A stretch of 64,000 nucleotides of DNA from Candidatus Dormiibacterota bacterium (GCA_963791435.1 CAWBSL010000002.1:559746-623745), one strand, 5' to 3'. Positions 33,839 to 56,814 are shown, counted from the first letter of the stretch. Translations and numbers: made by a program. Notes: generated by a model not told the origin, from the sequence alone.

Positions 33839-36490
33839 GAACGAGCTCGAACATTCGGGCTCCGCACTTGGTCGCGGCGGTGCCTGAGGCGCCTCACACA
33901 ACGCTCGACCTGCAGACCGCGGGGAACACGCCCATCCTGCGCGAATATCGAGCCGTCAAAGCCGAGCACCCTGACGCGATCGTGCTCGCCCGTCTTGGTG
34001 ATTTCTTCGAGATGTTCGGCGAGGACGCGCAGATCGCTGCACCGATCATCGGCGTGCAGCTGACCGGTCGCAGTTTCGGCGCTGCGGGCCGGTTGCCGAT
34101 GTGCGGCGTGCCGCATCAGTCGATCACGCAGCACATCCGCAAACTCCTCGACGCAGGGCAGCGCGTCGCCATCTGGGACCAGGTGGGGGAGGTGGTTTCC
34201 GGACGCCTCGTCCGGCGCGCTGTGACGCGCGTGCTGAGCCCGGGCATGGTGGTCGAGGCGGATTTGCTCGACGCGTCGGCCGTATCGCGGTGCGTGTCGC
34301 TGTTCCCGGCGGATGGCAGTGTCGGCATCGCGTCATTTGACCCCAACACCCAACATCTGGAGCTGTTCGAGGTCGACGGTGGTCTCGACGGCGCAGCCGT
34401 GGCCGATGAGCTGGCGCGCCTCGAGCCCAGCGAACTCCTTGTCCAGGACGGCACAGTGCTTCCGGCCGGGCTTGGCGGAGTCGCCCAGGTGACGCCCCTT
34501 GCTGCGTCGCTCTTCGACACCACGCGCGCCGAGGAGCGCCTGCGCCGCGCGTCGGGAGCGGTGTCGCTCGACGGCCTCGGGGTGACCGGTATTCCCAGCG
34601 CATTGCGGGCAGCCGGCGCCGTGCTCGCCTACTGCGAGCGCGCGCACATCGTCATCAGCCAGGACCTGCTTCGCATCGCCATCCGTGCTCCCGAGGGCGC
34701 GATGCGTCTCGATGCCCATACGCGCGCCAACCTCGAGCTGTTCGCGCGGCTGGGGGAGCGCGGCACGTCGCTGCTCCACCTGCTCGACGCGACACGGACC
34801 CCGATGGGCGTGCGCCTCCTCCGCGCGCGCTTGCAGGATCCGCTTACCGACGTCGAAGCGGTCACGCGACGACTCGAACTCGATCGAGGTGCTGCTCGCT
34901 GACCGCGACGGGCGCCGGCACCTCCGTGACGCGCTCGCGGGCATGCGTGACCTCGAGCGCCTGGTGGCGCGCTGCGTGCAGCGACTCGCGACACCACGAG
35001 ACCTGGGCGCCGTGCGCGACGCCTGCGCGGCGCTCGAGGTGACAGGCGCCGCGGCTGAACGGATCACCGGAGCCGGCGCCGAGATCACCGAGGCGGCGAG
35101 CCGGTGCCATCCACCGGCCGGGCTGCGCGAGCGCCTCGATGCGCTGCTCTGCGAGGACCTGCCGGCCGCGTCAGGCGACGGCGGCGCGATCAGGGCCGGC
35201 GCGGATGCTGACCTCGACGAGCTTCGCGCCGCGGGCAGCGGCGCCCGCACCTACCTCGCCGCGCTGGAAGCGGGCGAGCGCGAGCGCACCGGCATCCGCT
35301 CCTTGCGCGTCGGCTACAACCGCGTCTTCGGCTACTACATCGAGGTCCCGAACGCGCATCGCGACCGGGTTCCCGACGACTACTCGCGCAAGCAGACGCT
35401 TGCCGGCGCCGAGCGCTACGTGACACCGGACCTCAAGGAACACGAGACGATCGTCCTCCACGCCCGCGAACGGGCCATCGCGCGTGAGCAGGAGCTGCTC
35501 GCCGGCGCGGCCGCCATGGTCGCGATCGAGGCTCGGTCCCTCGCCGATGCCGCGGCAGCAGCCGCGACACTGGACGTCGCGCAGTCACTCGCAACCGTGG
35601 CCGAGGAAGGGCACTGGGTCCGGCCGGCCATCAACTCGTCGTCGACACTCCGAATCACCGGCGGTCGCCACCCGCTTGTGGAGCGAACGCTCGGTCCTGG
35701 CAGGTTTGTTCCGAACGATCTCATGCTTGACGACGAGGCACGGATCGTCGTGCTCACCGGTCCGAACATGGCGGGCAAGTCGACGTACCTCCGCCAGACG
35801 GCGACCATCGTGCTTCTCGCGCAGATCGGCTCGTACGTCCCGGCCGACGAGGCCGCCATCGGTGTGTGCGATCGGATCTTCACGAGGATCGGCGCGCACG
35901 ACGATCTGAGTGGTGGCCTCTCGACGTTCATGGTGGAGATGGCAGAAACTGCCGCCATCCTCCGACAGGCGACGGGACGCAGCCTGGTGATCCTCGACGA
36001 GATCGGTCGCGGCACCTCCACCTACGACGGCGTCAGCATCGCCCAGGCCGTCGTCGAGTATCTCCATGACGCGCCGCAGCTGAACTGCAGGACGCTCTTC
36101 GCGACGCATTTCCACGAGCTGACCGTGCTCGCCACCCAGATGCCGAGGGTGCGCAACGCTCGCGTCGAGGTCGTGGAGGACGGCGCCGACATCACCTTCC
36201 TGCACCGCATCGTCCCGGGAGGCGCTGATCGGTCATACGGAATCCACGTCGCCAGGCTCGCGGGTATCCCGGGCGGAGTCCTCGCTCGCGCCCGTCAGCT
36301 GCTCGCTGCGCAGGAACGCGAACGGCCACTCGGCGGTGGGGATCACCTCGGCGACCAGCTGACCCTCTCGATCAGCGAGCCGGTGCCGCACCCCGTCGTC
36401 AACGAGCTCGCCGCGCTCGACCTCGACGGCATGACCCCGATCGCCGCGCTGAACAAGCTGGAGGAGCTCCGCGTACGAGCATCGACATGA
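33835..36490 (+). CDS. mutS: DNA mismatch repair protein MutS, frame broken near 34877
   Basis: Domain I (PILREYRAVKAEHPDAIVLARLGDFFEMFGEDA) in frame 1 up to ...VTRRLEL. The core, clamp and ATPase (GPNMAGKSTYLRQ..., DEIGRGTSTYDG) continue in frame +1. One extra base in gaactc restores RLDSIEVLLADRDG. GTG 33835 overlaps the miaB stop. Confidence 0.88.
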
Positions 36491-38283
36491 TCGCCGCCTC
36501 GCCGATCCGCAGGCTCCCGCAGGTTGTCGCCGACGCCATCGCCGCCGGCGAGGTCATCGAACGGCCCGCGTCGGTGCTCAAGGAGCTCGTGGAGAACGCG
36601 CTTGATGCGGGGGCGCGCCGGATCGATATCGCCATCGAGGGTGGCGAACTCGTGCGCATGCTCGTGGCAGATGACGGCACCGGGATCCCGGAGACGGATC
36701 TCGAGCTCGCGGTCGAGCGTCACGCCACCTCGAAGATCGCCGTCGCCGATGACATCTCGCAAGTCCGGACGCTCGGCTTTCGCGGCGAGGCGCTCGCCAG
36801 CATCGCCGCCGTGTCGGAGCTGCGCCTGACAACGCGCACCCGCAACTCCATCGGAGGTTCGGAGCTCCGCGTCCGTCACGGGGAACTGCTCTCACGCAGC
36901 GCCGCGGCGAGCGCTCGCGGGACGCAGGTGGAAGTCAGCGAGCTCTTCGCGGCGTCGCCCGCGCGCCTCCGTTTCCTCCGCTCGGTGGCAACCGAGGGAA
37001 GCGCGGCGGTCCGTGTCGCGGCGGATCTCGCGATCACGCATCCTGAGGTGTGCTTCACCTGCACCAATGACGGCCGCGTGGTGCTGCGGACGGCGGGTGG
37101 ATCGCTTCGCGACGCGATGCGCGCGATCGTCGGCGTGCGTGCCGAGCGGGATCTCCTCGACGTGGACGCGCTCGGCCCGATCACGGTCGGCGGCCTCATC
37201 GCTTCCCCGCACGCGCACCGCGCATCGCGAAATGGGCTCGTGCTCATCGTCAACCACCGGTTGGTGCACAACCGGGCGCTGCTCGCCGCCATCGACGAGG
37301 CGTATCGCGGGCTCATCCCCGGCGGCCGCCACGGCTACGGTGTCGTCACCGTCGAGGTCCCGCCGGATGCCCTCGACGTCAACGTCCACCCCGCGAAACG
37401 AGAGGTGCGCTTCACCGACGAGCGCGCGGTGTTCGGCGCGGTGCAGCGTGCCTGCTGGGCAACGCTGCGTGCCGCGCCGGCTCTTGGTGCCGACGGCCAT
37501 CTTCCGTCGGGATTCGCCGCCGGGGCACTGGAACTTCGCGACGGCGAGGTTGGAGTTGTCGGACGCCGGGACCCACTGACGAGCGCGGACGAAGCGACCC
37601 CGGTGTGGAATCCGGTTGCAGCGCACGACGGACTGCGAGCTTGGGCCCCACCTGCCGCCGACGGAGCGGTGCGCGACCCGGCGGCGTCGACGATGCTGCC
37701 CGCGCTGAGCGCACTCGGCCAGGCAGGCAGCGGATTCCTCGTCGCGACGGCGGGGGACACGGTGGTGCTGGTGGATCCTCACGCGGGGCACGAGAAGGTG
37801 CTCTACACCGAGCTCCTCGCGCGCTCGCGCCAGGAACTGCCCGATGCCGCAGAGGCGCAGCTCCTGCTCATCCCCGTGGTCGTCGAATGCGGACCCGACA
37901 AGGCATCACGAGTTGCAGACGAACATGACTTTTTCTCGCGATGTGGTTTCAGCATTGAGCAATTCGGCCCCGGCACCGTGCGCTGCACGGCCGTGCCCGT
38001 CAGCGCCGCAGGAGCTGACCCGGGGGTGCTCGTCGGCGAGCTCATCGAACGCCTGGACAACCGTGACGCGGGCACCGAGGAGCGCCGCCACCGCCTCGCG
38101 GCGCTGGTGGCGTGTCACTCGGCCGTGCGCTTCGGGGACCGCCTTGACGTGGTCGCCCAGCAGCGCCTCCTCGATGAGCTGGTCGCGACGCCCGGGGGCA
38201 CCACCTGTCCGCACGGACGCCCGTCGGTGCTCATCCTCGATGACGCAATGCTTCGGCGGGCCTTCCGGAGGCCAGCGCGATGA
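36487..38283 (+). CDS. mutL: DNA mismatch repair protein MutL
   Basis: GHKL ATPase N-terminus (VVADAIAAGEVIERPASVLKELVENALDAGA..I.I..GG). The C-terminal dimerization domain is conserved. Confidence 0.9.
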   Translation: MIAASPIRRLPQVVADAIAAGEVIERPASVLKELVENALDAGARRIDIAIEGGELVRMLVADDGTGIPETDLELAVERHATSKIAVADDISQVRTLGFRGEALASIAAVSELRLTTRTRNSIGGSELRVRHGELLSRSAAASARGTQVEVSELFAASPARLRFLRSVATEGSAAVRVAADLAITHPEVCFTCTNDGRVVLRTAGGSLRDAMRAIVGVRAERDLLDVDALGPITVGGLIASPHAHRASRNGLVLIVNHRLVHNRALLAAIDEAYRGLIPGGRHGYGVVTVEVPPDALDVNVHPAKREVRFTDERAVFGAVQRACWATLRAAPALGADGHLPSGFAAGALELRDGEVGVVGRRDPLTSADEATPVWNPVAAHDGLRAWAPPAADGAVRDPAASTMLPALSALGQAGSGFLVATAGDTVVLVDPHAGHEKVLYTELLARSRQELPDAAEAQLLLIPVVVECGPDKASRVADEHDFFSRCGFSIEQFGPGTVRCTAVPVSAAGADPGVLVGELIERLDNRDAGTEERRHRLAALVACHSAVRFGDRLDVVAQQRLLDELVATPGGTTCPHGRPSVLILDDAMLRRAFRRPAR

Positions 38284-39239
38284 GCCGCCCGATGCTGGTG
38301 ATCGTCGGCCCGACCTGCTCCGGCAAGACCGCGCTCGCCGTGGCCACCGCGACGCGCCTCGCGCCCGCGGAGATGCTCAACGCCGACTCGCGCCAGGTGC
38401 GTCGCGGGCTCCGCGTCGGAACGTGCGCACCGAGCCCCGCCGACCTGCACGGCGTTCGCTGCCATCTCCTCGACCTGTGTGATCCGGGGGAGACCTTCAC
38501 CGTCGCCGACTGGCTGACGGCAGCGCGGCGGAGCCTCGAGCGGCTCGATCGAGCCGGAACGCGGGCCGTCGTGGCCGGAGGCACCGGCCTCTACGTCACC
38601 GCGCTCGTCGACGGCTTCGACCTAGCCCAGGTGCCGCCGGATCCGGTCCGCAGGGCGGACCGGGCCGAGCTCGCGGCCACCCCGGAAGGGCTGGCGTCCC
38701 TCGCCGCCGAGCTTCGTGAGCGGGACCCTGCCGGCGCAATGGAGATCGATCAGCGCAACCCCCGCCGGGTCATTCGCGCCCTCGAGATCCTCGATGCCAA
38801 GGGTGGCTCGGTGCTCACGGCACGCCGGCGAGCGACGCCGCGAGCGGCCGTGATGGTGGGGTTGGACGTCGCCCGCCCTGCACACGCGCGCTGGATCGAG
38901 CACCGGATCGCCGGCATGTTCGACAGCGGTGGCATCCAGGACGAGGTCCGCTGGCTCCTCGGCAGAGGGCTCGACCGCGCGGCGATCGGATCCTGCGGCA
39001 TCGGCTACAGCGAGGCCCTCGACCTCATCGAGGGGCATATCGATCTCGAAGCCGCCATGCAGGCAACGATGCGCCGGACGCTGCGCTACGCCCGCGCGCA
39101 GCGTACGTGGTTCCGCCGGGACACGCGGCTCACCTGGTTCCGCCCGGATCTCGTCGGCTTCGACGAGATGGTCAGCGACGTCCTGGATCTGGTCGCCGCG
39201 GCCGGCAACGGGCAGCAGCGCAACGACGCCGGCCTGTAG
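38280..39239 (+). CDS. miaA: tRNA dimethylallyltransferase MiaA
   Basis: LVIVGPTCSGKTALAVA...NADSRQVRRGLRVGT. Confidence 0.9.
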   Translation: MSRPMLVIVGPTCSGKTALAVATATRLAPAEMLNADSRQVRRGLRVGTCAPSPADLHGVRCHLLDLCDPGETFTVADWLTAARRSLERLDRAGTRAVVAGGTGLYVTALVDGFDLAQVPPDPVRRADRAELAATPEGLASLAAELRERDPAGAMEIDQRNPRRVIRALEILDAKGGSVLTARRRATPRAAVMVGLDVARPAHARWIEHRIAGMFDSGGIQDEVRWLLGRGLDRAAIGSCGIGYSEALDLIEGHIDLEAAMQATMRRTLRYARAQRTWFRRDTRLTWFRPDLVGFDEMVSDVLDLVAAAGNGQQRNDAGL

Positions 39240-41854: not shown

Positions 41855-42319
41855 GTGAGCGCACGCGCCATCCGCATCCGCGTCGGCGTGCTGATCTGGC
41901 GCGACGGCGAGGTGCTCCTCGTGCGTCACGAGAAGGGCGGTCACTCGTACTGGCTTGTCCCCGGCGGCGGCGTCGATCCCGGCGAGACCATGGTCGCGGC
42001 AGGTGCCCGGGAGCTCGTCGAGGAGACCGGCTACCGCGTCGAGGTCGGCCGCCTCCTGCTCATCTGCGAGGCGATCGACCCCAAGCCGGACGGCCGCCAT
42101 ATCGTCAACGCGGTCTATGCCGGAGCAGTCCGGGGAGGGACGCTCACCGTCGGGGTCGACGACAAAGCGCTCCGCGACGCCCGGTGGCATCCGCTCGACG
42201 CCCTGACCACGCTCGAGATGTACCCGCCGATCGGCGCGGCGCTGCTGGCCTGCTGCGAGGAGAACGGCACCGGCCCGGTACGTGTGCTCGGCAATACGTG
42301 GCGCCCGCTCGGCGGCTAG
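41855..42319 (+). CDS. NUDIX hydrolase
   Basis: Nudix box GGGVDPGETMVAAGARELVEETG. Confidence 0.85.
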   Translation: MSARAIRIRVGVLIWRDGEVLLVRHEKGGHSYWLVPGGGVDPGETMVAAGARELVEETGYRVEVGRLLLICEAIDPKPDGRHIVNAVYAGAVRGGTLTVGVDDKALRDARWHPLDALTTLEMYPPIGAALLACCEENGTGPVRVLGNTWRPLGG

Positions 42320-42332
42320 CTCGCCGGCACCG

Positions 42333-43379
42333 TCAGCGGGCGGCGACCTCCTCGAGGTAGTCGCCAAGACGCCGGTATGCCTCGCGTTTGCGGCGGTCGG
42401 TGATCTCCGTGTAGACCTTGAGGGTTTCCAGGGTGGCGTGCCCGAGCACCTCCTGCACCAGGCGGACGTCCCCGTCCGTCGCTTCGAGCAGGGTGGTCGC
42501 CGCCGTGTGGCGCGCGGCGTGCGGCGTGCGGAGATCGCTGAACAGCTCGAACATCTCGGGATCGACGCCCATGCGGCGCCGCAGCGCCGTGAGCGCTCGC
42601 CGGGCGCCGTCGGTGGTCAGGCGGTTGTGCGGCAATGCCCGTCCGTGGGGCACGTCGGCGCGGGCCACACTGATGAACAGAGCAGGGGAGGGGTCCGGAC
42701 CGCGCAACTTCAGATAATCGTCGACCGCGGCGAAGGCATCACCCGTGCAATACACAGTTCTGTATTTGCCACCCTTGCCGAGAACTCGGAACCCTTCTCG
42801 CCGAACATCGCCACGGTCGAGACCACACGCCTCGGCGATGCGGCACCCGGTGCTCAGCAGCAGGTTGATGAGCGCCCGATCCCGGCGGTCCCGCAGCGTT
42901 TCCCTCGGCAGTGCTGCGAGGAGCCGCGGGACGTGATCCGTCGGCACCGGGTGCGGGTCGCCCACCACGTAGCGAGGCACGGCAACCTGACGGCTCAGTT
43001 CGGCGGCGATCCAGCCCTCGTCGTACGCGTAGGCGAGGAAGCGTCGCAACGCGACCAGCGCCCGAGCGCGGGAACGCGGATTGGGCAGCACGTCGGCAAG
43101 CTCGATCTGATAGCGGCGGAGCGTCGGCCGGTCGACGCCGGAGAGCAGGTCGTCGCTGAGCGGCCGTGTGCGCAGGAAGGCGACGAACTTGGCGAGGTCC
43201 TGCCGGTACGCACGGACGGTGGTCGCCGGGCGGTTGCGCTGCACGCGCAGGAAGTCGAGGAACTGCACCACCTGGTCCGGCATCGAGTCGCTCGGCCCCG
43301 GAACGTGGGTGGCCCAGGCCGGACCGCGACGCTCACGGGGCGCGGTCGGCCGGCGAGTAGAGCGTGAAGGAGCCGCCAT
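42333..43379 (-). CDS. xerD: Tyrosine recombinase XerD/XerC family
   Basis: N-terminal SAM-like domain (FLDFLRVQRNRPATTVRAYRQDLAKF). C-terminal catalytic R..HxxR..Y (HAARHTAATTLLE..., LGHATLETLKVYTEI). NUDIX adjacency resembles actinobacterial xerD synteny. The ATG at 43379 is chosen over the longer upstream ORF. Confidence 0.8.
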   Translation of the reverse strand: MAAPSRSTRRPTAPRERRGPAWATHVPGPSDSMPDQVVQFLDFLRVQRNRPATTVRAYRQDLAKFVAFLRTRPLSDDLLSGVDRPTLRRYQIELADVLPNPRSRARALVALRRFLAYAYDEGWIAAELSRQVAVPRYVVGDPHPVPTDHVPRLLAALPRETLRDRRDRALINLLLSTGCRIAEACGLDRGDVRREGFRVLGKGGKYRTVYCTGDAFAAVDDYLKLRGPDPSPALFISVARADVPHGRALPHNRLTTDGARRALTALRRRMGVDPEMFELFSDLRTPHAARHTAATTLLEATDGDVRLVQEVLGHATLETLKVYTEITDRRKREAYRRLGDYLEEVAAR

Positions 43380-43386
43380 GCTCCTT

Positions 43387-43400
43387 ATTATCAGGAGCTT
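43387..43400. repeat. 14-bp direct repeat ATTATCAGGAGCTT, copy 1 (overlaps the NTase stop and xerD RBS)
   Basis: Exact 14-mer identical to 45317-45330. AT-rich in a 70% GC context. Confidence 0.6.
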
Positions 43401-44200
43401 GGCGGCGTGTGACCGATTTCGGCCTCTTCGAGGGCGAACCTGATGAAGTCGAGGGTTGCGAGTCGCTGATCCGGCTGCAGGCCACCTGGATACGCCACCG
43501 CCGACTGGATCAAGGGACGCCAGGCCTCGAGGTACGGACCGCGCATCGCCCAGGCGGCCGCCTCGGGCTTCGTCACGAGCTCGCCCGTGGCCAGCATGCA
43601 GAGCGAGCGGCACATGGTGAGCACCGCGTATGCCTGGTAGCTCCGCTGGAGGAACTGTCCCGGGTACTCGAGCTGCGGCCGCCACCACTCGCGGAGGTTG
43701 CCGATCACAGCGTCGCGCAGCTCGCCGTTGGTCACCGGCGCCACGATCCTGGCGATCCTGGGCCCGTAGAGCGTGATCCCATGCTGGCGGAGGATCCGCT
43801 TCTGGATCATGAAGTCGGAGCCGAGCGGCTGCACCTTGAACCCTTCATCGGGATGCAGCTCCAGGACCGAGATCCGGGGGACGCCGGCCATCCCGAGCGC
43901 GCTCGCCGGGACGAACATCACCTCCAGCCGGTCTGCCCAGCGAGCCGAGCCCCAGCCGTGCATCGCCCCGTGGACCTCGTGGATGCGCTCGTTTGCCGGT
44001 CCATCGGTCAGCGTCCGGGTGGTCGCGACGACGTCGATATCACTCGTCCGTGGGTTGAAGGCGCCGGTGGAGACCGAGCCATGGACGTAAACCCCGGTAA
44101 GGTTGCGGCCCAGTGCACTCCGCCAGGATGCGACCGCGAGACTGAGAAACGACTTCAGGCCGGGACCGCCCGCCCTGATAACGCGTACGTCCATCTCCAT
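43391..44200 (-). CDS. ANT(3'')/ANT(9)-like nucleotidyltransferase (AadA family, NTase domain + DUF4111)
   Basis: N-terminal NTase (VYVHGSVSTGAFNPRTSDIDVV). C-terminal DUF4111-like (YAVLTMCRSLCMLATGELVTKPEAAAWAM...YLEAWRPLIQSAVAY) aligns with AadA. The stop overlaps the RBS of the downstream recombinase (TGATAATAAGGAGCATG). Confidence 0.75.
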   Translation of the reverse strand: MEMDVRVIRAGGPGLKSFLSLAVASWRSALGRNLTGVYVHGSVSTGAFNPRTSDIDVVATTRTLTDGPANERIHEVHGAMHGWGSARWADRLEVMFVPASALGMAGVPRISVLELHPDEGFKVQPLGSDFMIQKRILRQHGITLYGPRIARIVAPVTNGELRDAVIGNLREWWRPQLEYPGQFLQRSYQAYAVLTMCRSLCMLATGELVTKPEAAAWAMRGPYLEAWRPLIQSAVAYPGGLQPDQRLATLDFIRFALEEAEIGHTPPSS

Positions 44201-44256
44201 CGCCGATAACCCTATCCCTCAATGGCGTGCTTCTCGACGCCTTTCGCGCGACGCGT

Positions 44257-45189
44257 TCAGGTCGTGTCGGCGGCATCCGACGTCAGGGCGCGCTCGAAGC
44301 GCCCGCGCCGGCCGCACTCACGCCATCCGAGGTGCCGCCACGTGGCGTGCCCTGCGGGATTGTTGCGGTTGACATGCAGGTAGGCGATGCCGATACCCAC
44401 CGCGCGCATGCGGCTGCGCGCTTCCGTGGCGAGCGCCGTCGCCAGCCCGATCCGCCGGGACGCAGGGTCGACCCCGACCTGACCGATCCAGCCCGTGCCA
44501 GACACCCAGCCCATGCCAGAGACCACGAACCCGATGGGCTTGCCGTGGCGAACCGCACAGAACGACGCGGAGGGCAGGAAGATCTCTTCGCTCGTGAGCC
44601 TGGTGATCCACTCCGACTGAGACAAGCCGGGGAAGCCCGGACGGCTGCGAAACGCGGCCTCGTACACCTCGAAGCTCGCTGCAGGGGTGTCGGCCTCGTC
44701 CCATTCGAGTAAGGCCGTGCCCGGTGGCCATTGCGCCGATGGCAGGTCCCCGGCAAGCCAGCATTCCATGGCCAGCTCTTCGAAGACGAGGTCATAGCCC
44801 GCTGCGGCCCACCGGCGCACCTCGCCATCGCTGAGGTTCTCGCTGACGACCTGGATCGGTGTGGGATCCGCTTCCGCGATCCGTGCCTCGATCCACTCGA
44901 GCTGCTCGGGCCAGAGGTGGTCTTCGCCCGGCTGGAGCATCGAGGTCACCGTGATCGTTCCCGCACCCTCGGGAGCGGGCTCGCACACGAAGGCGCAAGC
45001 GCCCAGCCGGCCGTCAGACCCTTCATGGGGGAAGCTCGTTACGCCCGGGCGGAAGAATGAGCGCTTCAGCCAGTCGCGGTCGGCGGTGAGCGACCAACCT
45101 TGGGGATCCGGACGCTGCGACCGTGCCAGCGTCAGGACCCGGTCCAGATCGGCTTCGATCGTCGACATCAGATCGTCAAGGTCGGTCAT
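44257..45189 (-). CDS. Tandem-GNAT N-acetyltransferase (MshD-like architecture)
   Basis: Two GNAT-like halves. The C-terminal motif A reads QVGVDPASRRIGLATALATEA. 310 aa. Confidence 0.65.
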   Translation of the reverse strand: MTDLDDLMSTIEADLDRVLTLARSQRPDPQGWSLTADRDWLKRSFFRPGVTSFPHEGSDGRLGACAFVCEPAPEGAGTITVTSMLQPGEDHLWPEQLEWIEARIAEADPTPIQVVSENLSDGEVRRWAAAGYDLVFEELAMECWLAGDLPSAQWPPGTALLEWDEADTPAASFEVYEAAFRSRPGFPGLSQSEWITRLTSEEIFLPSASFCAVRHGKPIGFVVSGMGWVSGTGWIGQVGVDPASRRIGLATALATEARSRMRAVGIGIAYLHVNRNNPAGHATWRHLGWRECGRRGRFERALTSDAADTT

Positions 45190-45316
45190 GAGCGCGCGAG
45201 TCTAGTCCGGCCGGGTCTTGAGAGGCCGGTCAACTCCATCTCGCCTCCGGAAGTTGGAGGAGGGGTGACGGCATTCCAGCTTTAGCCGACCAAGCTTCTA
45301 TATCGTGAGAATATGC

Positions 45317-45330
45317 ATTATCAGGAGCTT
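45317..45330. repeat. 14-bp direct repeat ATTATCAGGAGCTT, copy 2 (in the AT-rich spacer upstream of the GNAT gene)
   Basis: Exact copy of 43387-43400, 1930 bp away. Lies in a locally AT-rich segment (about 45280-45335). Confidence 0.6.
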
Positions 45331-45454
45331 TACTCGTCGCTGCGCCAGGTTGCAGCCCAGGCTCTCCTCTTCGATATCTGAGGCTCGACTCCCGACGCCT
45401 GACCATCGTCAATCAACGACCGCCAGCGACCCGGGGCGCCGAACGCCGGAGCGC

Positions 45455-47233
45455 TCAGCCCGGGCTGAAGACCGGAATCGCCGGCGCCGAGCAGCCCGGA
45501 CACGCCGGCGCCACCCACAGCGTGTCGCTGCTGGACCGCCAGATGACGTCGATGGCGCCGCCTCCGGCGAAGCCCACCGACGACGGGTCCGAGGACGCGG
45601 TCGCGCCGAGACTCTCCGGCCCGACCAGTCCGCTCGCAGCCGTGTAGAGAGACGACGCCATCAGCCCCGAGGGCTCGCGAGAGTCGACGATGACCGAGCC
45701 CGGCGCAAGGTCGACGACGGACGGATCGCCAGTCACGGTCTCGGTCCCGAGTGCTACCGGACCGCTCCAGACGCCTCCGCTCAAGGCGCCGTGCCAGAGC
45801 TCACCCGCGCCATCCCAGAAGACGTCAATGGTCGTGCCCGTGGCGCTCGCGGAAGGATCCGCGGCGAGGACCGTGGTGGTCAGGCGCTTGGCCCCGGACC
45901 AACCGAAGGACGTGCCGCTGTCGGCCCAGAGGTCGCCCGACGCATCGCGCCAGAAGACCGTGTCGGAGCCCTGGCCCGCGCTGGCGACCACCGGGTTGCC
46001 GTCCACCGCACCGCTGTCCAGCGGCGTGCCGCCGCTCCAGCCGCTGTTGTAGTGGTCGACCCAGAGGGCGGAGTCCGAGCCCTTCCAGATGACGTCGATC
46101 ACGCCAGGACCCGGTGACACTGCACGAGGCTCGGAGCTGAGCGGCCCGAGGCCGAGAGAGACCGGCGCCGACCATGTCCCGCTGCCGAACCATCCCCCGG
46201 TGTAGCCGGCATACCAGAGGTTGTGATCCTCCCCTTCCCAGAACGCGTCAATACGGCCAGGCCCTGCAGAGACGACAGACGGGTCAGACGCAAGCAGCGC
46301 CGCACTGCCACCGGCCGCGCTGATGTCGGTTGAAGCTGTCCCCCACCGGCTGTTGCGGAAGCTGAGGTTCCACAGCTGCTCGTTCGTTCCGCGCCAGAGG
46401 ACGTTGATGTCGCCGGGCTGATCGGAGACCGTCTGGGGTGTCCCCGCGACGTTTGCGGCTTGCGGGAGTGCCGTCGGATCCGGGAAGCCGTCGTACGGCA
46501 GCGAGCGCACGCCTCCCTCATCCAGGTCCACGTTGCCGGAGATGCCGGGAACCGAGCCTGCGTCGCTGAACTGCCAGACCTGCCAGCCGGTCCCGCCCCA
46601 GTTGTTCTCGGGCACCTGCGGCTGAGTCACGAACCAGTTCGCTATCCAGAGCGGGTCGAGGGTGAACGCCGCGGAGTTGATGTTCCCGCTCCACCAGGAC
46701 GGCGAGCAGTAGATCGCGGGCAGCGAACCGATCGCGGCGCTCACCGTGTTCACGATGGTCCGCAGGTTGGCCACGACCACCGACTGCGGCTCGCCGTCCG
46801 TCGTCTCGACGTCGATCGTGGGGACCAGGTCGCCGTGGCTGAACCCCACCGCCCGGAGCTGGGAGACGAGCAGGTCGGCCTGGCCGACGGCGCTTTGATT
46901 CGGCTCATAGAAGAGGTAGGCACCGGGGGTCACACCCGCAGCAGCCGCTCCGCGCCAGTTGGTCACGAACTGCCCGTCCGGTGAGTTGGCGCCGTCAGCG
47001 GCCCGGATGTATGCAAACGAGATGCCCGAGGCTGCAACCGAGTGCCAGTTGATCGAGTCACCCTGGTAGGCGCTGACGTCGATCCCCTCGCGCGTGGTGC
47101 CGGCCCGAGCGTCCACGCCGCTGAGGACACCGCCGGGCACAGCGGCCAGGAGAACAAGCAGCGTCGCGGTGGCGGCGACTCGAGATCTCACGCCACGTCT
47201 GCAGGAAGACCCACCATCGCCCCGAGAGTACAC
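45455..47233 (-). CDS. Secreted GH25 muramidase (lysozyme) fused to a C-terminal 6-7-blade beta-propeller-like repeat domain
   Basis: Signal peptide. GH25 motif GIDVSAYQGDSINWHSVAASGISFAYIRAADG. Six to seven roughly 47-aa repeats of the form [IV]D[VA][FI]W[RKE]G..[DN]..LW........GW.G (aa about 275-592, nt about 45455-46410). Confidence 0.8.
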   Translation of the reverse strand: MYSRGDGGSSCRRGVRSRVAATATLLVLLAAVPGGVLSGVDARAGTTREGIDVSAYQGDSINWHSVAASGISFAYIRAADGANSPDGQFVTNWRGAAAAGVTPGAYLFYEPNQSAVGQADLLVSQLRAVGFSHGDLVPTIDVETTDGEPQSVVVANLRTIVNTVSAAIGSLPAIYCSPSWWSGNINSAAFTLDPLWIANWFVTQPQVPENNWGGTGWQVWQFSDAGSVPGISGNVDLDEGGVRSLPYDGFPDPTALPQAANVAGTPQTVSDQPGDINVLWRGTNEQLWNLSFRNSRWGTASTDISAAGGSAALLASDPSVVSAGPGRIDAFWEGEDHNLWYAGYTGGWFGSGTWSAPVSLGLGPLSSEPRAVSPGPGVIDVIWKGSDSALWVDHYNSGWSGGTPLDSGAVDGNPVVASAGQGSDTVFWRDASGDLWADSGTSFGWSGAKRLTTTVLAADPSASATGTTIDVFWDGAGELWHGALSGGVWSGPVALGTETVTGDPSVVDLAPGSVIVDSREPSGLMASSLYTAASGLVGPESLGATASSDPSSVGFAGGGAIDVIWRSSSDTLWVAPACPGCSAPAIPVFSPG

Positions 47234-47306: not shown

Positions 47307-48284
47307 TTGGTCCGGTACTCTGATGCCGTGGCACAGGACACTCCGCGCAAGCCGGTGGGCAAGCAAACCCTTCCAACCGGGAAGGCTGGGGCAAGGCCGG
47401 TTTCCAAGAAGCAGCGACGCAACCAGGCGGCGATACGGTCGGTCAGTCTCGAGCGCCGTCCGCCGTGGCAATCGCCTACAGTGGTGACGATTTCCAGCGT
47501 GGCCGTCGTTGCGATCGTCCTCATCGTCATCGTGCTCATCAACCAGGTCGGTGGCGGCAACACCACCACGCTGACGCCGGTTCCGGCCACGCTCGCCGCT
47601 CAGATTGAGAATCCCAGCTCGACCGTGGTCGATACGGTCGGATCCGGCGGTCAACCCGGCAATATGATCCGCCTCCCAGCGTCCGCGCTCCTTCCCACAG
47701 TTGACGGGAAGACGCAGATCGTCTTCATGGGCGCCGAGTTCTGCCCGTACTGCGCGGCCGAACGCTGGTCGATGGTGATGTGGCTGTCGCGCTTCGGTAC
47801 CTTCAAGAATCTCAGCGAAATCCAGTCGTCTTCCACGGATATCTATCCCGACACTGACAGCTTCACCTTCTACAAGTCGAGCTACACCAGCCAGTACATC
47901 GACTTCAATTCGAACGAGGTCGAGGATCGCAACTCGCAACCTCTCCAGACGCTGAGTGCTGCCACGACGAACATCGTCAACAAGTGGGACAAGCCTCCGT
48001 ACACCGCTGAAGCCGGACAGTTCCCGTTCATCGACATCGGCGGGGTCTGGACCCTCCTCACCACGAGCTACATCCCGAGTGATCTCGCCAACCTCTCGTG
48101 GACGCAGATTGGCAATGACCTCAGCAACCCGACGTCGACGGTCGCGAAGGACATCATCGGCAACGCAAATATCCTCACGGCCGCAACGTGCATCGCAACG
48201 GGTGACACGCCGTCGTCCGTATGCTCCTCCTCCACCATCCAGAACATCGAGACCGGACTGAAGACGATCAAGGCCCAGTCCTGA
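47307..48284 (+). CDS. DUF929 family thioredoxin-like membrane-anchored protein (CxxC)
   Basis: Basic N-terminus plus TM. FCPYCAAERW redox motif. Distinctly lower GC (about 58%) than the surroundings. Confidence 0.75.
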   Translation: MVRYSDAVAQDTPRKPVGKQTLPTGKAGARPVSKKQRRNQAAIRSVSLERRPPWQSPTVVTISSVAVVAIVLIVIVLINQVGGGNTTTLTPVPATLAAQIENPSSTVVDTVGSGGQPGNMIRLPASALLPTVDGKTQIVFMGAEFCPYCAAERWSMVMWLSRFGTFKNLSEIQSSSTDIYPDTDSFTFYKSSYTSQYIDFNSNEVEDRNSQPLQTLSAATTNIVNKWDKPPYTAEAGQFPFIDIGGVWTLLTTSYIPSDLANLSWTQIGNDLSNPTSTVAKDIIGNANILTAATCIATGDTPSSVCSSSTIQNIETGLKTIKAQS

Positions 48285-48304
48285 CCCGGGGCTGACAGAA
48301 ACGC

Positions 48305-48958
48305 ATGGCTGTCATCACCTCCTCGGAGGTCATCAACACCGGGTACGCGGTGCTCGCACTCATCGCCGACGCGATGGTGTTCCTCGTCCTCATCTATTTC
48401 CTCGCCTCACGCAGCTCACCGTCCGCCCGCAAACGCTGGGCACGCTTCCGCGACGCCGTGACCCCCTTCGCCCTGCAGATCGCGTGGATCGTCGCAGTGC
48501 TCGCCACGTTCGGCAGCCTCTTCCTGCAATACGAGGAAGGCCTCCAGCCGTGCACGTTCTGCTGGTTTCAGCGCATCTGCATGTATCCGCTCTCACTGCT
48601 CCTCGGCATCGCCGCCTTCCGCGGAGATGTGCAGGTCGCCAAGCGATACTTCCTCGGCCTCGCCATGGTCGGAGCCGTGATCGCGATCTACCACTATCAG
48701 CTCGAGCACGTTCCCAACGAGTTCAGCGTCTGCTCATTGGTGCCAGGCGAGACTCCGTGCAACGTGGCGGTCATCAATGTCTTCGGCTTCATCTCCGTCC
48801 CCTTCCTGTCGATGGCCGCGTTTCTCCTGATCACGACGCTCATCCTGGTCGCACGCGGCAGGCGCGACGACTACGAAGAGGATGAGGACGAGATCGACCT
48901 CATCGAGGCCGGCACCGACGGTGACACCGGCGACGACGCGCTCCCCGCGCCCGCCTAG
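48305..48958 (+). CDS. Disulfide bond formation protein B family (DsbB/BdbC-like)
   Basis: 4-TM with CTFCWFQRICMYP and a second Cys pair (CSLVPGETPC). Acidic C-terminal tail. Immediately downstream of DUF929. Lower GC. Confidence 0.78.
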   Translation: MAVITSSEVINTGYAVLALIADAMVFLVLIYFLASRSSPSARKRWARFRDAVTPFALQIAWIVAVLATFGSLFLQYEEGLQPCTFCWFQRICMYPLSLLLGIAAFRGDVQVAKRYFLGLAMVGAVIAIYHYQLEHVPNEFSVCSLVPGETPCNVAVINVFGFISVPFLSMAAFLLITTLILVARGRRDDYEEDEDEIDLIEAGTDGDTGDDALPAPA

Positions 48959-49739: not shown

Positions 49740-50900
49740 TCAGCCCGGATAGATGAGGCGTGCCTCGCCGGGGAACAGCCAGCCGAGCCCATCGAGGAGC
49801 CGGTCGCGCCAGTTGATCCAGTTGTGGCCGTCGAGGGCTTCAACAACACGCATCTCGTCGGTCATCCGCCCGAGCACCTCGGTCATCGCCCGGTCCGGCA
49901 CCGCGAGCGGCTCGAATGCTCCGTAGGTCAGGAAGAGCCGGTCGGTGACCTTCTTCGGGTTGGCGCGCACCGCGTTGACGAAGCGGACGACGGGCTCGAA
50001 GACATCACCGAACGTCGCCGGTGCGCTCGCCTCGGTGAAACGCAGCGACGGCGATTCAAGGAGCAGCCCTCCATAGAAGCCCGGCGCGCGCACCGCTGCC
50101 GAAAGCGCAGCAACGCCACCGAAGCTCGCCCCCATCAGTACGCGGCTGCGCGGATCACCGCGAAGCTGGAGCCGCCCCTCGATCTGCGGCACGAGCTCCG
50201 TGGTGAGGAACCGGCTGTGCGCCGCGCTCGCCGCATACTCTCGCAGCCGGTCGCCCGGATACGTGAAAGCGACGACGCAGTCGGCCATCAGGCGGCGGTG
50301 CATCAGGTTGTCGAGCACCGTCCCCATCGATGAATAGTTGAGAAAGTCGCCGCCGTCGTGCACGACCAGCAATGGCATCCGGCGGTCGCGTCGCATCCGG
50401 GACGGGATGTACAGGGTCACGTGTGCATCGCGACGCAGAGCCCGGCTCGGAAGTTGCAGGTCGACGTACTCACCGGCAACGGCCGACGGGTCGGGATACG
50501 TCCAGTCGGGTGTGACGTAGCCTTCGGTCTCGAGCACGGACTGCGAACCGATGGCATCGCCGACGACACGCGGATTGAGCGGGTCGTTCATGCTCTCGTC
50601 GTGCCCTCGACGCCGGACGAGGATCCTGTACTGGATGCGAGCCGCACGAGGGAGCTCGACGCTCACGTGCCAGAGGTCTGTGCCCTTCAACCGGCGGAGC
50701 GGCAGCGGAATCGGGATACCCATCGTTCGATGCTCGATACCCACCCAGTCCGCCTGGCCGCGCCAGAGAAACGTGCAGGTCGATCCTTCGACCAGCGGAA
50801 TCCGGTTCTCCCGCAGCAGGCTGTCAATCGCCTCGGGGGTGTTGCCCTCGCTGCGCAGGCGGGCGAGTGCCCGCTGGTTGCGGGCGGAGCCGGTGGTCAC
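49740..50900 (-). CDS. Enterochelin-esterase-like (Fes-type) esterase with an N-terminal Ig-like domain
   Basis: N-terminal beta-sandwich (TFLWRGQADWVGIEH...WHVSVELP). C-terminal esterase domain (LLVVHDGGDFL...MGASFGGVAAL). Confidence 0.72.
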   Translation of the reverse strand: MTTGSARNQRALARLRSEGNTPEAIDSLLRENRIPLVEGSTCTFLWRGQADWVGIEHRTMGIPIPLPLRRLKGTDLWHVSVELPRAARIQYRILVRRRGHDESMNDPLNPRVVGDAIGSQSVLETEGYVTPDWTYPDPSAVAGEYVDLQLPSRALRRDAHVTLYIPSRMRRDRRMPLLVVHDGGDFLNYSSMGTVLDNLMHRRLMADCVVAFTYPGDRLREYAASAAHSRFLTTELVPQIEGRLQLRGDPRSRVLMGASFGGVAALSAAVRAPGFYGGLLLESPSLRFTEASAPATFGDVFEPVVRFVNAVRANPKKVTDRLFLTYGAFEPLAVPDRAMTEVLGRMTDEMRVVEALDGHNWINWRDRLLDGLGWLFPGEARLIYPG

Positions 50901-53118: not shown

Positions 53119-54349
53119 ATGGCAAACGCGGTCTTCGTCGCTCCCTTCCTGCTCCCGGCCACGGTGCGGTTCATCGCTGCCGCCGCCTCGCTGCCGGACG
53201 TCCGGCTCGGCCTGATCAGTCAGGATCCGGAGACCCGTCTGCCCGACCACCTCCGCGCCGCCCTGGCAGGCCACTACCGGGTCGCCGACGGGACCGACCC
53301 GCAGCAGATCGCCGACGCCACGCGCTTCATGGCGCGCCATCTCGGCGGCATCGACGCGCTGGTGGGGATGCTCGAGCAGTTGCAGGTCCCGCTCGGCGAG
53401 GTGCGCGACGCGCTCGGCATCGCGGGCATGGGCGCCGACGTGGCGCACAACTTCCGCGACAAGGAGCGCATGAAGACCGTTTTCGAGGCGAACGGCGTGC
53501 CCTGCGCCGGACACCGTCTCGCCTCCTCCGCCGATGCGGCGCGAGCCGCCGCGGTCGAGCTCGGCTTCCCAATCGTCGCCAAGCCGCCCGCCGGAGCGGG
53601 CGCGCGCTCGACGTTTCGGATCGAGAGCGACAGCCAGCTCGAGGCGTGGCTTCGGGCCGATCCCCCTGACGGCTCGAACCCGGTGCTCCTCGAACAGCTT
53701 GTGGTGGGCGCCGAGCACAGCTTCGACAGCGTGCTGGTCGAGGGCGAGCTCGTCTGGCATTCGATCTCTCGCTACCTCCCCACTCCGCTCGAGGTGCTCG
53801 AGAATCCGTGGATCCAGTGGGCGGTGCTCCTGCCGCGCGACATCTCGGGCGCTGAGTTCGACCCCATCCGCGCGGACGGGCTCCGGGGTTTGCGTGCGCT
53901 CGGCCTGCGCACCGGGCTCACCCACATGGAGTGGTTCCGGCGTCCCGACGGGCGGATCGCCATCAGTGAGGTGGCCGCGCGCCCGCCCGGTGCCCAGTTC
54001 ACGTCATTGCTGTCCTATTCTCACGACGTCGACATGTATGCGCGCGTGGGCGCGCCTCGAGATCTTCGGCGAGTTCACGCCGCCGGAGCGCCGATACGCC
54101 GTCGGGGCGGCGTACCTCCGCGCCCAGGGAAGCGGGTCCGTGGCGGGCATCCACGGGCTCGACACCCTGCAGCGCGAGCTCGGCGATCTCGTCGTGGAGG
54201 CGGACCTGCCCGCCGAGGGGCAGCCGGCGTCCGGCACCTACGAGGGTGAGGGCTACGTGATCCTCCGGCACCCCGACACCGCGGCGGTCGAGGCCGGGCT
54301 GCGACGCGTCGTCGAGGTCGCGCGCGTCGAGTTGCGGGAGATGTCATGA
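53119..54349 (+). CDS. ATP-grasp domain ligase, paralog B, frame broken near 54046
   Basis: FRDKERMK...GFPIVAKPPAGAGARSTFRI...HMEWFRRPDGR in frame 1 up to ...HDVDMYAR. The C-terminus (WARLEIFGEF..ERRYAVGAAY..HPDTAAVEAGL) continues in frame +1. One extra g restores it. Confidence 0.75.
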
Positions 54350-55569
54350 GCGGCACGGTGCTGATGATCTCGCCGGGCTATCCGGCGGAGATGCCGTTCT
54401 TCACGCGCGGTCTGGCCCGCGCAGGAGCGCAGGTCATCGGTGCCGGCGATCAGCCGCTCTCCGGGCTGCCGGATTTGGCCCGAGAAAACCTCGCCGCGTA
54501 CTGGCAGATACCCTCGTTTGCGCACGAGGATGCGATCGTGCACGAGGTGGTGCAGCGCGCCGCCGGCATCCACGTCGATCATGTCGCGTCGCTGTGGGAG
54601 CCGACCATGGTGCTGGCGGCGCGAATCCGCGAAGCACTCGGCATTCCGGGCATGACCGTCGAACAGACCATCCCTTTTCGCGACAAGGAGCGGATGAAGC
54701 AGGTGCTCGACGCCGCGGGCATCCGCACGCCGCACCACTACCGCTGCGCCACCGCGACAGAGGTGCGCGCGGCGGCCGAGCGCATCGGCTACCCGATCAT
54801 CGTCAAGCCGATCGCCGGCGCAGGATCAGCCGATACGTACCGCGTCGACAACGCAGCGGCACTCGACGCCGTGCTTCCGAAACTCGTGTGGGTGGACGAG
54901 GTGAGCGTCGAGGAGTTCGTCGAAGCCACCGAGTACACGTACGACACCATCTGCGCCGGCGGTGAGGTGCTCTTCGACAACATCGCCTGGTACCGGCCGC
55001 GACCCTTGATCGCCCGACAGCTGGAGTGGATCAGCCCGGTGACCATGGTCATGCGCGACATCGACGCACCCGAGCTCTCGAGCGGTCGCGCCATGGGCCG
55101 CGACGTGTTGCGGGCCCTCGGATTCCGCGATGGGTTCACCCACATGGAGTGGTACCGGCGCGACAACGGTGAGGTGGTGTTCGGCGAGATCGGCGCGCGC
55201 CCCGCGGGCGCTCGCACCGTCGATGTCATGAATTTCGCGAATGACATCGACCTGTTCCAGCAGTGGGCCGAGGCACTCCTCCACGGACGCCTCTCGGAGC
55301 GGATCGAGCGGCGCTACAACGCGGCGTCGATCTTCAAGCGCGCGCAAGGGCAAGGGCGCATCACGCATATCGAAGGACTGTCGCGCCTGCTCTCCGATTA
55401 CGGCGAGTGGGTGTGCACGATCGACCTCCTGCCGATCGGCGCTCCGCGCAGGGACTGGTTGATGACCCTCATCTCCGACGGGATGGTCATCGTGCGCCAC
55501 CCGGATCTGGATGCATGCCTCGAGATCGCGGATCGTTTCGCGACGGAACTGCAGCTCTACGCGTATTGA
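54346..55569 (+). CDS. ATP-grasp domain ligase, paralog C
   Basis: 407 aa. FRDKERMK..., GYPIIVKPIAGAGSADTYRV, HMEWYRRDNGEV. The ATG overlaps the stop of B. Confidence 0.75.
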   Translation: MSGTVLMISPGYPAEMPFFTRGLARAGAQVIGAGDQPLSGLPDLARENLAAYWQIPSFAHEDAIVHEVVQRAAGIHVDHVASLWEPTMVLAARIREALGIPGMTVEQTIPFRDKERMKQVLDAAGIRTPHHYRCATATEVRAAAERIGYPIIVKPIAGAGSADTYRVDNAAALDAVLPKLVWVDEVSVEEFVEATEYTYDTICAGGEVLFDNIAWYRPRPLIARQLEWISPVTMVMRDIDAPELSSGRAMGRDVLRALGFRDGFTHMEWYRRDNGEVVFGEIGARPAGARTVDVMNFANDIDLFQQWAEALLHGRLSERIERRYNAASIFKRAQGQGRITHIEGLSRLLSDYGEWVCTIDLLPIGAPRRDWLMTLISDGMVIVRHPDLDACLEIADRFATELQLYAY

Positions 55570-55620
55570 GACGCGGGTCAACTCCGGCGGCGATATCGTC
55601 AAGCCGCATCTCGCGACCCC

Positions 55621-56814
55621 TCAGTCCGCGGCGCCGACCACCTGCTTGCCCACCGCTTCGAGCACCGCCGAGCGTGACGCGGGCATGTCGGCATGCAGTT
55701 CCGCGATCAGGCTGTCGACGACATCGACGAGCGAGCCGCCGGCCTCGACGACCTCGCGCTGGCGGATGTAGCTCGAGCCGCGCTCCATGATGTCCAGAGC
55801 GCCGCGCAACTCGTTCGTGCAAGCCAGCCGCGTTGCAATCGGCGTGAGATCCTCGACCAGCTCGCGGATCGCCTTACGCAGCGGCACGGTGGTGCCGCCC
55901 TCATCGACGATGATCGAGGCGTCGAGCCCGTGCCGGGCGGCCCGCCATTTGTTCTCGCGAACAAGCCACGCGCGCGGGGTGGGCAGCGTGTAGCCGCGGT
56001 CGATCATGACGTCAAACTGGTGCACGAGGCACTGGCTCAGGGCTGCAACGACACCGACCTCGCGCAGCGTGGGGATGCCGTCGCAGACGCGAATCTCGAC
56101 GGTGCCAAAACCCGGGTGCGGACGGATGTCCCACCACACCTCGCGGATCGTCTTGATGGTGTGCGATGAGATGAGCGTGTCCATCAGCTGCTCGAACTGC
56201 GGCCAGCCGCTGAGAATCCAGGGCGGACCCGCGGTTGGCAGGCCTTCGAAGACCTTCGAACGCCACGACGCCATCCCGGTGTCGTGGCGCATCCAGTACG
56301 GGCTCGACGCCGACAGCGCCAGGAAATGCGGAATGTAGGCGGAGAGCGCGTTGACCATCGCGATCGCCTTCTCACCGCTGCGGACCCCGACATGCACGTG
56401 GATGCCGAAGATCTGCATCTGCTTTGCCGGCCACTGCATGTCGTTGACCAGCCGTTGATAGCGCGGGTCAGGGCTGATCTCCTGGAGCGCGGGGTCGCTG
56501 AAGGGGTGCGTGCCCGAGCAGATCAGCTCCAGGTTGCGCGGCTCGGTGTGCTCGCGCAGCTCGGCCATCGTTGCCGCGAGATCCGCCTGCACCTCGGCGG
56601 CGGTCTCACAGATGCCGGTGATGATCTCGACCGTCGATTGGAGCAGCTCCTTCTTGGCCTTGGGGTGACCCGGCTCGCCATGGGGGGCGTTCAGCTCACC
56701 GAGGATCTCGTGGGCGCCACTCACCAGCTCGCGGGTGTCGCGGTTGATGAGCTCCAGCTCCATCTCGACGCCGACCGTCGGCCTCGGGCTGGACACGAAC
56801 TCAATGTGGGTCAT
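55621..56814 (-). CDS. Glutamate-cysteine ligase family 2 (GCS2/YbdK-type carboxylate-amine ligase)
   Basis: VGVEMELELIN...IFGIHVHVGVRSGEKAI...SSPYWMRHDTGMASWRSKVF, a GCS2 signature. Confidence 0.85.
   Translation of the reverse strand: MTHIEFVSSPRPTVGVEMELELINRDTRELVSGAHEILGELNAPHGEPGHPKAKKELLQSTVEIITGICETAAEVQADLAATMAELREHTEPRNLELICSGTHPFSDPALQEISPDPRYQRLVNDMQWPAKQMQIFGIHVHVGVRSGEKAIAMVNALSAYIPHFLALSASSPYWMRHDTGMASWRSKVFEGLPTAGPPWILSGWPQFEQLMDTLISSHTIKTIREVWWDIRPHPGFGTVEIRVCDGIPTLREVGVVAALSQCLVHQFDVMIDRGYTLPTPRAWLVRENKWRAARHGLDASIIVDEGGTTVPLRKAIRELVEDLTPIATRLACTNELRGALDIMERGSSYIRQREVVEAGGSLVDVVDSLIAELHADMPASRSAVLEAVGKQVVGAAD

Follow-up and report, generated by a model that had tools for sequence, protein, structure and literature searches.

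A candidate dif site and a linked Xer-type recombinase gene in Candidatus Dormibacteraeota

The repeat and the genes around it

This report concerns a stretch of 64,000 nucleotides (nt) from a Candidatus Dormiibacterota bacterium (GCA_963791435.1 CAWBSL010000002.1:559746-623745), called the window below, and within it a Xer-type tyrosine recombinase gene, a 14-nt direct repeat, and a dif-like site of which one copy of the repeat is part. The recombinase gene (REC; 42333-43379, minus strand) encodes 348 amino acids with Phage_integrase and SAM_1 domains. It is preceded on the same strand by a nucleotidyltransferase gene (NT; 43391-44200, NTP_transf_2 and AadA_C (DUF4111) domains, stop codon TGA at 43391-43393) and an acetyltransferase gene (GNAT; 44257-45189). 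On the far side of the site lies a minus-strand gene for a GH25 muramidase with a repeat domain (45455-47233), which is a constant neighbor in the clade defined below.

The 14-mer ATTATCAGGAGCTT occurs exactly twice in the window, at 43387-43400 (copy 1) and 45317-45330 (copy 2), with a start-to-start distance of 1930 bp; no further match was found in the window at up to two mismatches. The exact repeat and its spacing had been described in an earlier reading made from the sequence alone (the sequence-only reading), and our search of the window bore out both. Shuffled sequences gave an expectation of 0.05 matches, with two or more matches in 0 of 100 shuffles. Repeats of this length are common per se, as the window holds 104 distinct repeated 14-mers and Markov simulations averaged 65. 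ATTATCAGGAGCTT is the only one with at least nine A/T positions, and any such repeat arose in 2 of 200 simulations. The GC content of the window is 68%, and copy 2 lies within a local dip (0.58 versus about 0.68). The earlier description of an A/T-rich repeat whose second copy stands in an A/T-richer spot is thus also correct.

Relatives were collected with a REC-based scan of one genome per species, which yielded 68 loci, with essentially every one belonging to a Candidatus Dormibacteraeota genome bin, and with an exact-motif metagenome scan, which yielded 38 further loci, essentially all with the same kind of context (loci carry L numbers below). The loci with a GH25 gene beyond the site, in which REC is at least about 88% identical, are referred to as the GH25 clade; related loci total about 100. 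The 14-mer was found twice in every locus with REC at least about 88% identical whose sequence covers both positions. In the clade loci, one copy is found immediately ahead of the REC start codon and the second right after GH25, at a spacing of about 900 to 2,700 bp. Distant lineages without NT, GNAT, and GH25 still carry the 14-mer, with zero to two mismatches, before REC (L037, L038, L040, L041, L043-L045, and L064).

A dif-like site at copy 2

Copy 2 forms part of a 28-bp dif-like core site at 45301-45328, which reads GCTCCTGATAA-TGCATA-TTCTCACGATA on the minus strand. The left arm GCTCCTGATAA occupies 45328-45318, the centre TGCATA 45317-45312, and the right arm TTCTCACGATA 45311-45301, an 11-6-11 layout as in dif. 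Copy 2 itself, on the same strand, extends from two bases outside the left arm, through that arm, to the first centre base. In 78 loci, a block of about 36 bp (45297-45332, TAAAGCTCCTGATAA-TGCATA-TTCTCACGATCTAGA) was invariant between unconserved flanks. Phylum-wide, the arms remain inverted repeats of the form CT(C/A)(C/A/T)TGATAA and TT(A/C)TCA(C/G/T)GA, among lineages whose REC identity is 61-97%, and the centre differs by lineage (TGCATA, TGTAGA, TGAAGA, TGTATC, TGCACC, TGTCTG, and TACAGA). A free 6-bp crossover region flanked by conserved arms is what marks the core site of a tyrosine recombinase. The site is identical to Escherichia coli dif at 16 of 28 positions and to the predicted dif of Frankia alni also at 16 of 28, with a shared GATAATG...ATT core (reference sequences from PMC3025954). 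Unlike canonical dif, in which 4-6 of 11 arm positions are symmetrical, the site shows a higher arm symmetry of 7/11 in the window and 9-10/11 in other lineages.

One site was found per locus and one in the window, and it was intergenic in all loci. The genes beside it and their orientations vary by lineage, some of them being convergent, which argues against a promoter operator. In every lineage with the site, it lies upstream of REC at a distance of 0-10 kb, and it has the same orientation except in L047. The complete site abuts the REC start codon in L059, L077, L103, and L047; in the last of these (about 9,900-9,960), the abutting site is oriented opposite to that in all other loci. On two complete chromosomes, the site falls near 2.393 Mb of 3.336 Mb (OY970355.1) and near 0.463 Mb of 3.234 Mb (OY970307.1). 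The dif motif had no matches in viral contigs.

Two assemblies seem to break beside the site. The opening base of the core (CTCCTGATAATGC...) is also the very start of contig L020, and in L008 (about 7455) a run of N follows directly after the site. Such breaks may reflect strain-level structural variation.

Strand polarity around the site

Skew measures that tracked gene orientation were replaced by counts of G-rich octamers, defined as those that lack C and contain six or more G. These octamers are mostly on the plus strand left of the site and on the minus strand right of it, whatever the strand of the host gene. The best change point of octamer polarity falls at 45256-45511, an interval that brackets the site, with the cumulative maximum at 45260. 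The flip in the window was significant by permutation (p = 0.002) and in a Fisher test split at the site (p = 1e-4). When 11 loci of other lineages were pooled, the change point lay at most about 45 bp from the site centre and raised the log-likelihood by about 28. All 5 occurrences in the window of the E. coli FtsK orienting polar sequence (KOPS) pattern, GGGNAGGG, point to the site, as do 311 of 364 over all loci. Control G-rich patterns were polar too, indicating a general strand asymmetry, which is not proof of one specific motif. Third-codon-position G-C skew showed no flip and mostly followed gene orientation. Left of about 41 kb, 27 of 32 genes are on the plus strand; strands are mixed to the right.

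For Legionella, the criteria used for dif were a length of about 30 bp, low GC content, a palindromic and noncoding sequence, varying flanks, and a position near the terminus (PMC9765430). Together, the terminus signals and criteria of this type argue that the site is a chromosomal dif.

The recombinase

REC scored best against the family models of XerC (TIGR02224; 178 bits, cut-off 335) and XerD (TIGR02225; 156 bits, cut-off 330). It reached 122 bits with the XerA model (cut-off 220) and 72 bits with the XerS model (cut-off 267), and none of the four cut-offs was passed. Two integron integrase models gave 43 bits (cut-off 265) and 27 bits (cut-off 435). Among solved structures, E. coli XerD is the closest relative (E = 5e-26), and the alignment with XerD (1A0P) matches all six catalytic residues (R148, K172, H244, R247, H270, and Y279). 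The match to XerH was weak (E = 6e-7) and confined to the C-terminal region. Homologues are named only 'tyrosine-type recombinase/integrase' by NCBI. Across the clade, REC identity is 88-97%, exceeding that of any neighboring gene, and its synteny with NUDIX, LysM, and CtaG genes is conserved. The NUDIX hydrolase gene (41855-42319, plus strand), recognized by domain scan and in relatives, is convergent with REC and is a synteny anchor across the phylum. The most probable recombinase for the site is REC, a Xer-like protein with all six catalytic residues that is more conserved than its neighbors.

A second REC copy, fragmented or frameshifted and about 67% identical, was seen in L067 (9,900-11,100 and 5,595-6,764), which belongs to the same genome bin as L010. 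It adjoins a phage-type integrase and small phage-like open reading frames, and it has neither a dif-like site nor the NUDIX/LysM/CtaG synteny. It was dropped as a second Xer paralogue of that bin, being fragmented and beside a phage-type integrase, and is possibly a paralogue that is prophage-borne or has decayed.

A half-site precedes the recombinase gene

Copy 1 (AAGCTCCTGATAAT, minus strand) is a left-arm half-site. It comprises the left arm and one base of the centre, and beyond that no likeness to the centre or the right arm was seen. It holds the NT stop codon TGA, and its GATAAT lies 7 nt before the REC ATG. In every GH25-clade locus that covers the NT-REC junction, copy 1 is exact or has at most one mismatch. 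It is also kept when noncoding, as in L004, L008, L012, L023, and others, in which NT stops 8 nt earlier. Copy 1 is invariant whether coding or noncoding, and it is also present in the absence of NT, indicating that the constraint on it is not a coding one. As a separate observation, genomes differ in the TGA that ends NT: some use the one within the half-site, and others use one located 8 nt upstream. The end of the gene has thus slid relative to the conserved site.

According to the sequence-only reading, the NT stop overlaps the ribosome-binding site of the recombinase gene. The stop codon does lie inside copy 1. The ribosome-binding part is doubtful, as AAGGAG ends 1 nt before the REC ATG and relatives do not share the stretch between copy 1 and the ATG, which together speak against a ribosome-binding site. 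A -10-like hexamer is present 6-9 nt before the REC start in nearly all examined lineages (GATAAT, CATCAT, TAGCAT, TACGAT, TAGGAT, or TATACT), a position that fits a leaderless REC transcript. In the clade with REC identity of at least about 78%, this position is taken by GATAAT from the left arm of dif, accompanied by seven more arm bases. A simple scan for terminator consensus sequences found nothing.

Copy 1 is also part of a near-palindrome at 43366-43400 (GCCGCCATGCTCCT-TATTATC-AGGAGCTTGGCGGC), 35 bp in length, whose 14-bp arms match at 13 of 14 positions around a 7-bp loop and which spans the NT stop and the REC start. It was rejected as a site because the REC-side sequence is not conserved in relatives. 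A shorter GCTCC...GGAGC pairing at copy 1 recurs in many relatives; the full near-palindrome is absent from most.

The genes between the two copies

NT scored 18-45 bits against ANT(3'')/ANT(9) models with cut-offs of 193-595 (the best being 45 versus 193) and 18-39 bits against resistance equivalogs with cut-offs of 340-595, sharing with them only the fold and domain family. All scores being far under the family cut-offs, the aminoglycoside-modifying role suggested by the sequence-only reading finds no backing, and the tempting reading of the locus as a mobile aminoglycoside-resistance module is removed as unsupported. The earlier gene identities hold at the domain level. The labels 'tandem GNAT' and 'MshD-like' do not, as only a C-terminal GNAT domain was detected in the acetyltransferase and the MshD model (TIGR03448) gave 27.8 bits against a cut-off of 163.

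The sequence-only reading had itself named a lack of indel polymorphism at the repeats as grounds for refuting its cassette, and this is largely what the clade shows: NT was in every GH25-clade locus at 51-91% identity, and no loss precisely at the repeat was seen. GNAT is intact but divergent in some relatives (40-80% identity), frameshifted in L009, L065, and L058, cut to C-terminal remnants in L003, L013, and L029, and absent, for example, in L004, L005, L012, L014, and L015. In L019, L095, and L101 it is replaced by an Acyl_transf_3 gene. Interval genes in other lineages encode a beta-carbonic anhydrase, ArsR with AHSA1, DUF4331, DUF347, and a large membrane protein. Clustering of interval open reading frames was swamped by spurious ones in GC-rich DNA and was redone with a filter on third-codon-position GC.

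No mobile-element genes were found in the site-REC interval of the examined loci, and arm-like sites were not enriched in the interval (22 versus 19.8 ± 3.8 in shuffles). An integron was rejected, as the integrase models scored far under cut-off, the genes are co-directional, and no attC-like repeated element was found. A search of Rfam gave no credible match (one weak hit, E = 0.15, far below the gathering score), and PADLOC gave no match. Judging from the loci compared, the change in the interval is a gradual turnover within a variable, terminus-proximal interval and not a precise cassette exchange. On the same comparison, NT and GNAT are ordinary accessory genes of a dif-xer interval and not a mobile cassette.

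Interpretation and alternatives

The explanation that we favor is that copy 2 is probably an arm of the chromosomal dif, on which REC would act, with copy 1 as an operator half-site and NT and GNAT as passengers. The dif of this Candidatus Dormibacteraeota chromosome would then be a 28-bp core of two inverted recombinase-binding arms and a 6-bp crossover region, located where the two replication arms meet, and REC would bind the arms and resolve chromosome dimers there. Copy 1, with its left arm only, would be unable to support the full recombination reaction. Its GATAAT may be the -10 element of a leaderless REC mRNA. A dif site adjoining its own xer gene, with possible autoregulation, has been described or proposed for XerS/difSL and XerH/difH (PMC1914069 and PMC5357621), and difSL has been proposed to be part of the xer promoter and to mediate autoregulation (Le Bourgeois et al., PMC1914069). 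A REC monomer may bind the half-site and repress its own promoter, which the half-site would also supply. The half-site is thus most likely an operator for REC autorepression.

Several results weigh against this explanation. Plain GC skew showed no sign change at the site in the window. The count of a single site is limited to the 64-kb window and loci of 2-21 kb. A simple sigma-70 consensus scan found no promoter at REC. Lastly, the AAGCTCC extension of the half-site is kept only in the clade with REC identity of at least about 78%, with only the -10-like hexamer in distant lineages, so that autoregulation through the half-site cannot be universal.

Insertion by recombination could also account for the arrangement. 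A dif-bearing element, like the integrative mobile elements exploiting Xer recombination (IMEXs), could have integrated at an ancestral dif abutting REC, bringing cargo and leaving a functional far dif and a degenerate near copy. The loci in which the full site abuts the REC start codon (L059, L077, L103, and L047) are consistent with such an ancestor, as are the different accessory genes found in the interval by lineage. The identity between the copies ends 1 nt into the centre, near the canonical top-strand cut position of dif, IMEXs of the LME-1 type leave one intact and one modified dif (PMC9765430), and the contig start in L020 and the gap in L008 fall at the site. However, simple integration predicts the chromosomal right arm at the near copy, which instead has the left arm and no right arm. 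The half-site predates every individual cargo, and strong purifying selection acts on it, which would not be expected of a scar. GNAT was lost by gradual decay, and neither mobile-element genes nor further sites in the interval nor a match in viral contigs was found. We therefore consider an IMEX-like scar unlikely. A reading that we rate as quite improbable is that dif and the promoter half-site together form a slot for Xer-driven gene capture, in which circular DNA with a dif-like arm would integrate between the two. The half-site would then protect REC expression from being uncoupled by insertions; this too we hold to be improbable. Le Bourgeois et al. proposed that the difSL-xerS arrangement avoids such a risk of uncoupling (PMC1914069). 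If true, the slot would explain the unrelated interval genes, i.e., those for the NTase, GNAT, acyltransferase, carbonic anhydrase, ArsR/AHSA1, DUF4331, and membrane proteins. It is very unlikely that NT-GNAT is a mobile or excisable cassette between two att-like repeats, moved by REC. In that model, the circle would join the NT 3' end, the 14-mer, and GCATATTCTCA, and the deletion would join GH25, the 14-mer, and ACGGAGCATGG. The repeat is exact, direct, and bracketing, the REC gene adjoins it, and the interval content varies among relatives. Against this, NT is in all clade loci and no locus has an empty site, the GNAT remnants and frameshifts (L003, L009, L013, L029, L058, and L065) are ordinary decay, and REC is a core, syntenic gene across the phylum. 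Copy 1 lacks the second arm and the crossover region, and excision would remove the only complete dif from the chromosome. Of the proposal in the sequence-only reading that the repeat is an att-like site or cassette boundary for the adjacent tyrosine recombinase, the link to the recombinase survives, as the repeat is an arm of a dif-like site linked to REC phylum-wide. The boundary does not, since copy 1 is without the second arm and centre and is kept even without NT, GNAT, and GH25, and GNAT loss is ragged.

Explanations that do not involve recombination are less probable still. The half-sites TGATAAT and ATTATCA resemble Fur-type boxes, and the palindrome could be a transcription factor operator of that kind (TGATAAT...ATTATCA), in which case copy 1 would be no more than a strong -10 element. 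In favor of this are the A/T-rich, palindromic, intergenic character of the site and an enterochelin-esterase-like gene 4.4 kb away. Fur boxes, however, have a half-site spacing of 1 or 7 nt and not the 4 nt seen here, and the arms of the site are fixed around a variable centre. The flanking genes vary, some being convergent, no regulated gene is conserved, and only the linkage to REC is constant. Strand polarity flips exactly at the site, and the identity of the two copies also covers seven bases that precede the -10 element. An operator of this kind is accordingly a remote prospect. A chance repeat or a generic ribosome-binding context, the latter having been raised in the sequence-only reading, can be practically dismissed. 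Exact 14-mer repeats are indeed common in this GC-rich window (104), but this one is the sole A/T-rich repeat, of a kind found in 2 of 200 simulations, dozens of diverged genomes conserve both copies, and a Shine-Dalgarno sequence would not stand at this distance from the ATG.

Comparison with known systems

The arrangement resembles XerS/difSL of streptococci and lactococci, in which the site is near or upstream of a dedicated gene in a conserved module of the terminus region with varying genes (PMC1914069). It differs in that REC is XerC/XerD-like (72 bits with the XerS model versus 267) and in that the site is 28 bp (11-6-11) and not 31 bp as for XerS. In addition, genes are inserted here between the site and the recombinase gene in most lineages, and a separate left-arm half-site stands at the gene start. 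With canonical XerCD/dif (that of E. coli and the dif predicted for Actinobacteria, PMC3025954), the site shares the 28-bp core, the ATAA-N6-TT inner core, and G-rich polar motifs that converge on it, and the recombinase family is the closest one. In contrast to that system, in which xerC and xerD are far from dif, the gene here is within 0-10 kb, and REC is under the family cut-offs. XerH/difH of Helicobacter and Campylobacter and XerL/dif of Legionella are single-recombinase systems. As in XerH/difH, the dif site is near the recombinase gene (PMC5357621), and as in Legionella XerL/dif, the site is low in GC, palindromic, and noncoding with varying flanks (PMC9765430). The system is unlike XerH and XerL in that the sequence relatedness of REC is weak (XerH, C-terminal only, at the E value given above). 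To our knowledge, a half-site at the gene start has not been reported for XerH/difH or XerL/dif.

The locus is also like IMEXs and the dif modules of Acinetobacter (CTX phage, the gonococcal genetic island, LME-1, and pdif) in having genes between directly repeated dif-type sequences. In IMEXs and pdif modules, both bounding sites are two-armed with a centre and the elements show presence/absence polymorphism, whereas here one boundary is a bare half-site, NT is fixed in the clade, and GNAT is lost by decay. We know of no description of a dif half-site kept at a recombinase promoter. Our literature search found no publication on Xer/dif in Dormibacteraeota.

The locus would provide a candidate dif and its cognate Xer for the Dormibacteraeota, a widespread, uncultured soil phylum, and the site could be used as a sequence marker of the replication terminus in metagenome-assembled genomes with uninformative GC skew. 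It would extend the 'dif next to xer' layout, tied so far to the atypical XerS and XerH, to a canonical-looking recombinase and site. The conserved half-site over the putative REC promoter makes the long-standing idea of Xer autoregulation directly testable.

Other features of the window

No tRNA genes were found in the whole 64 kb. A long run of plus-strand genes extends over 1,700-39,300 and includes a MutS-family gene (34685-36490), MutL (36487-38283), and MiaA (38280-39239). The C-terminal part of the GH25 protein, about 350 amino acids, is made of internal repeats (DNA repeats at 45539-46414). Beyond GH25 lies a DUF929 and DsbB gene pair (47307-48958). In the metagenome locus L078, this pair directly flanks the site without GH25, indicating that GH25, too, is cargo specific to a lineage, on the side of the site away from REC. 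Farther right are the enterochelin-esterase-like gene (49740-50900) and the ATP-grasp and GCS2 glutamate-cysteine ligase-family genes (54346-56814).

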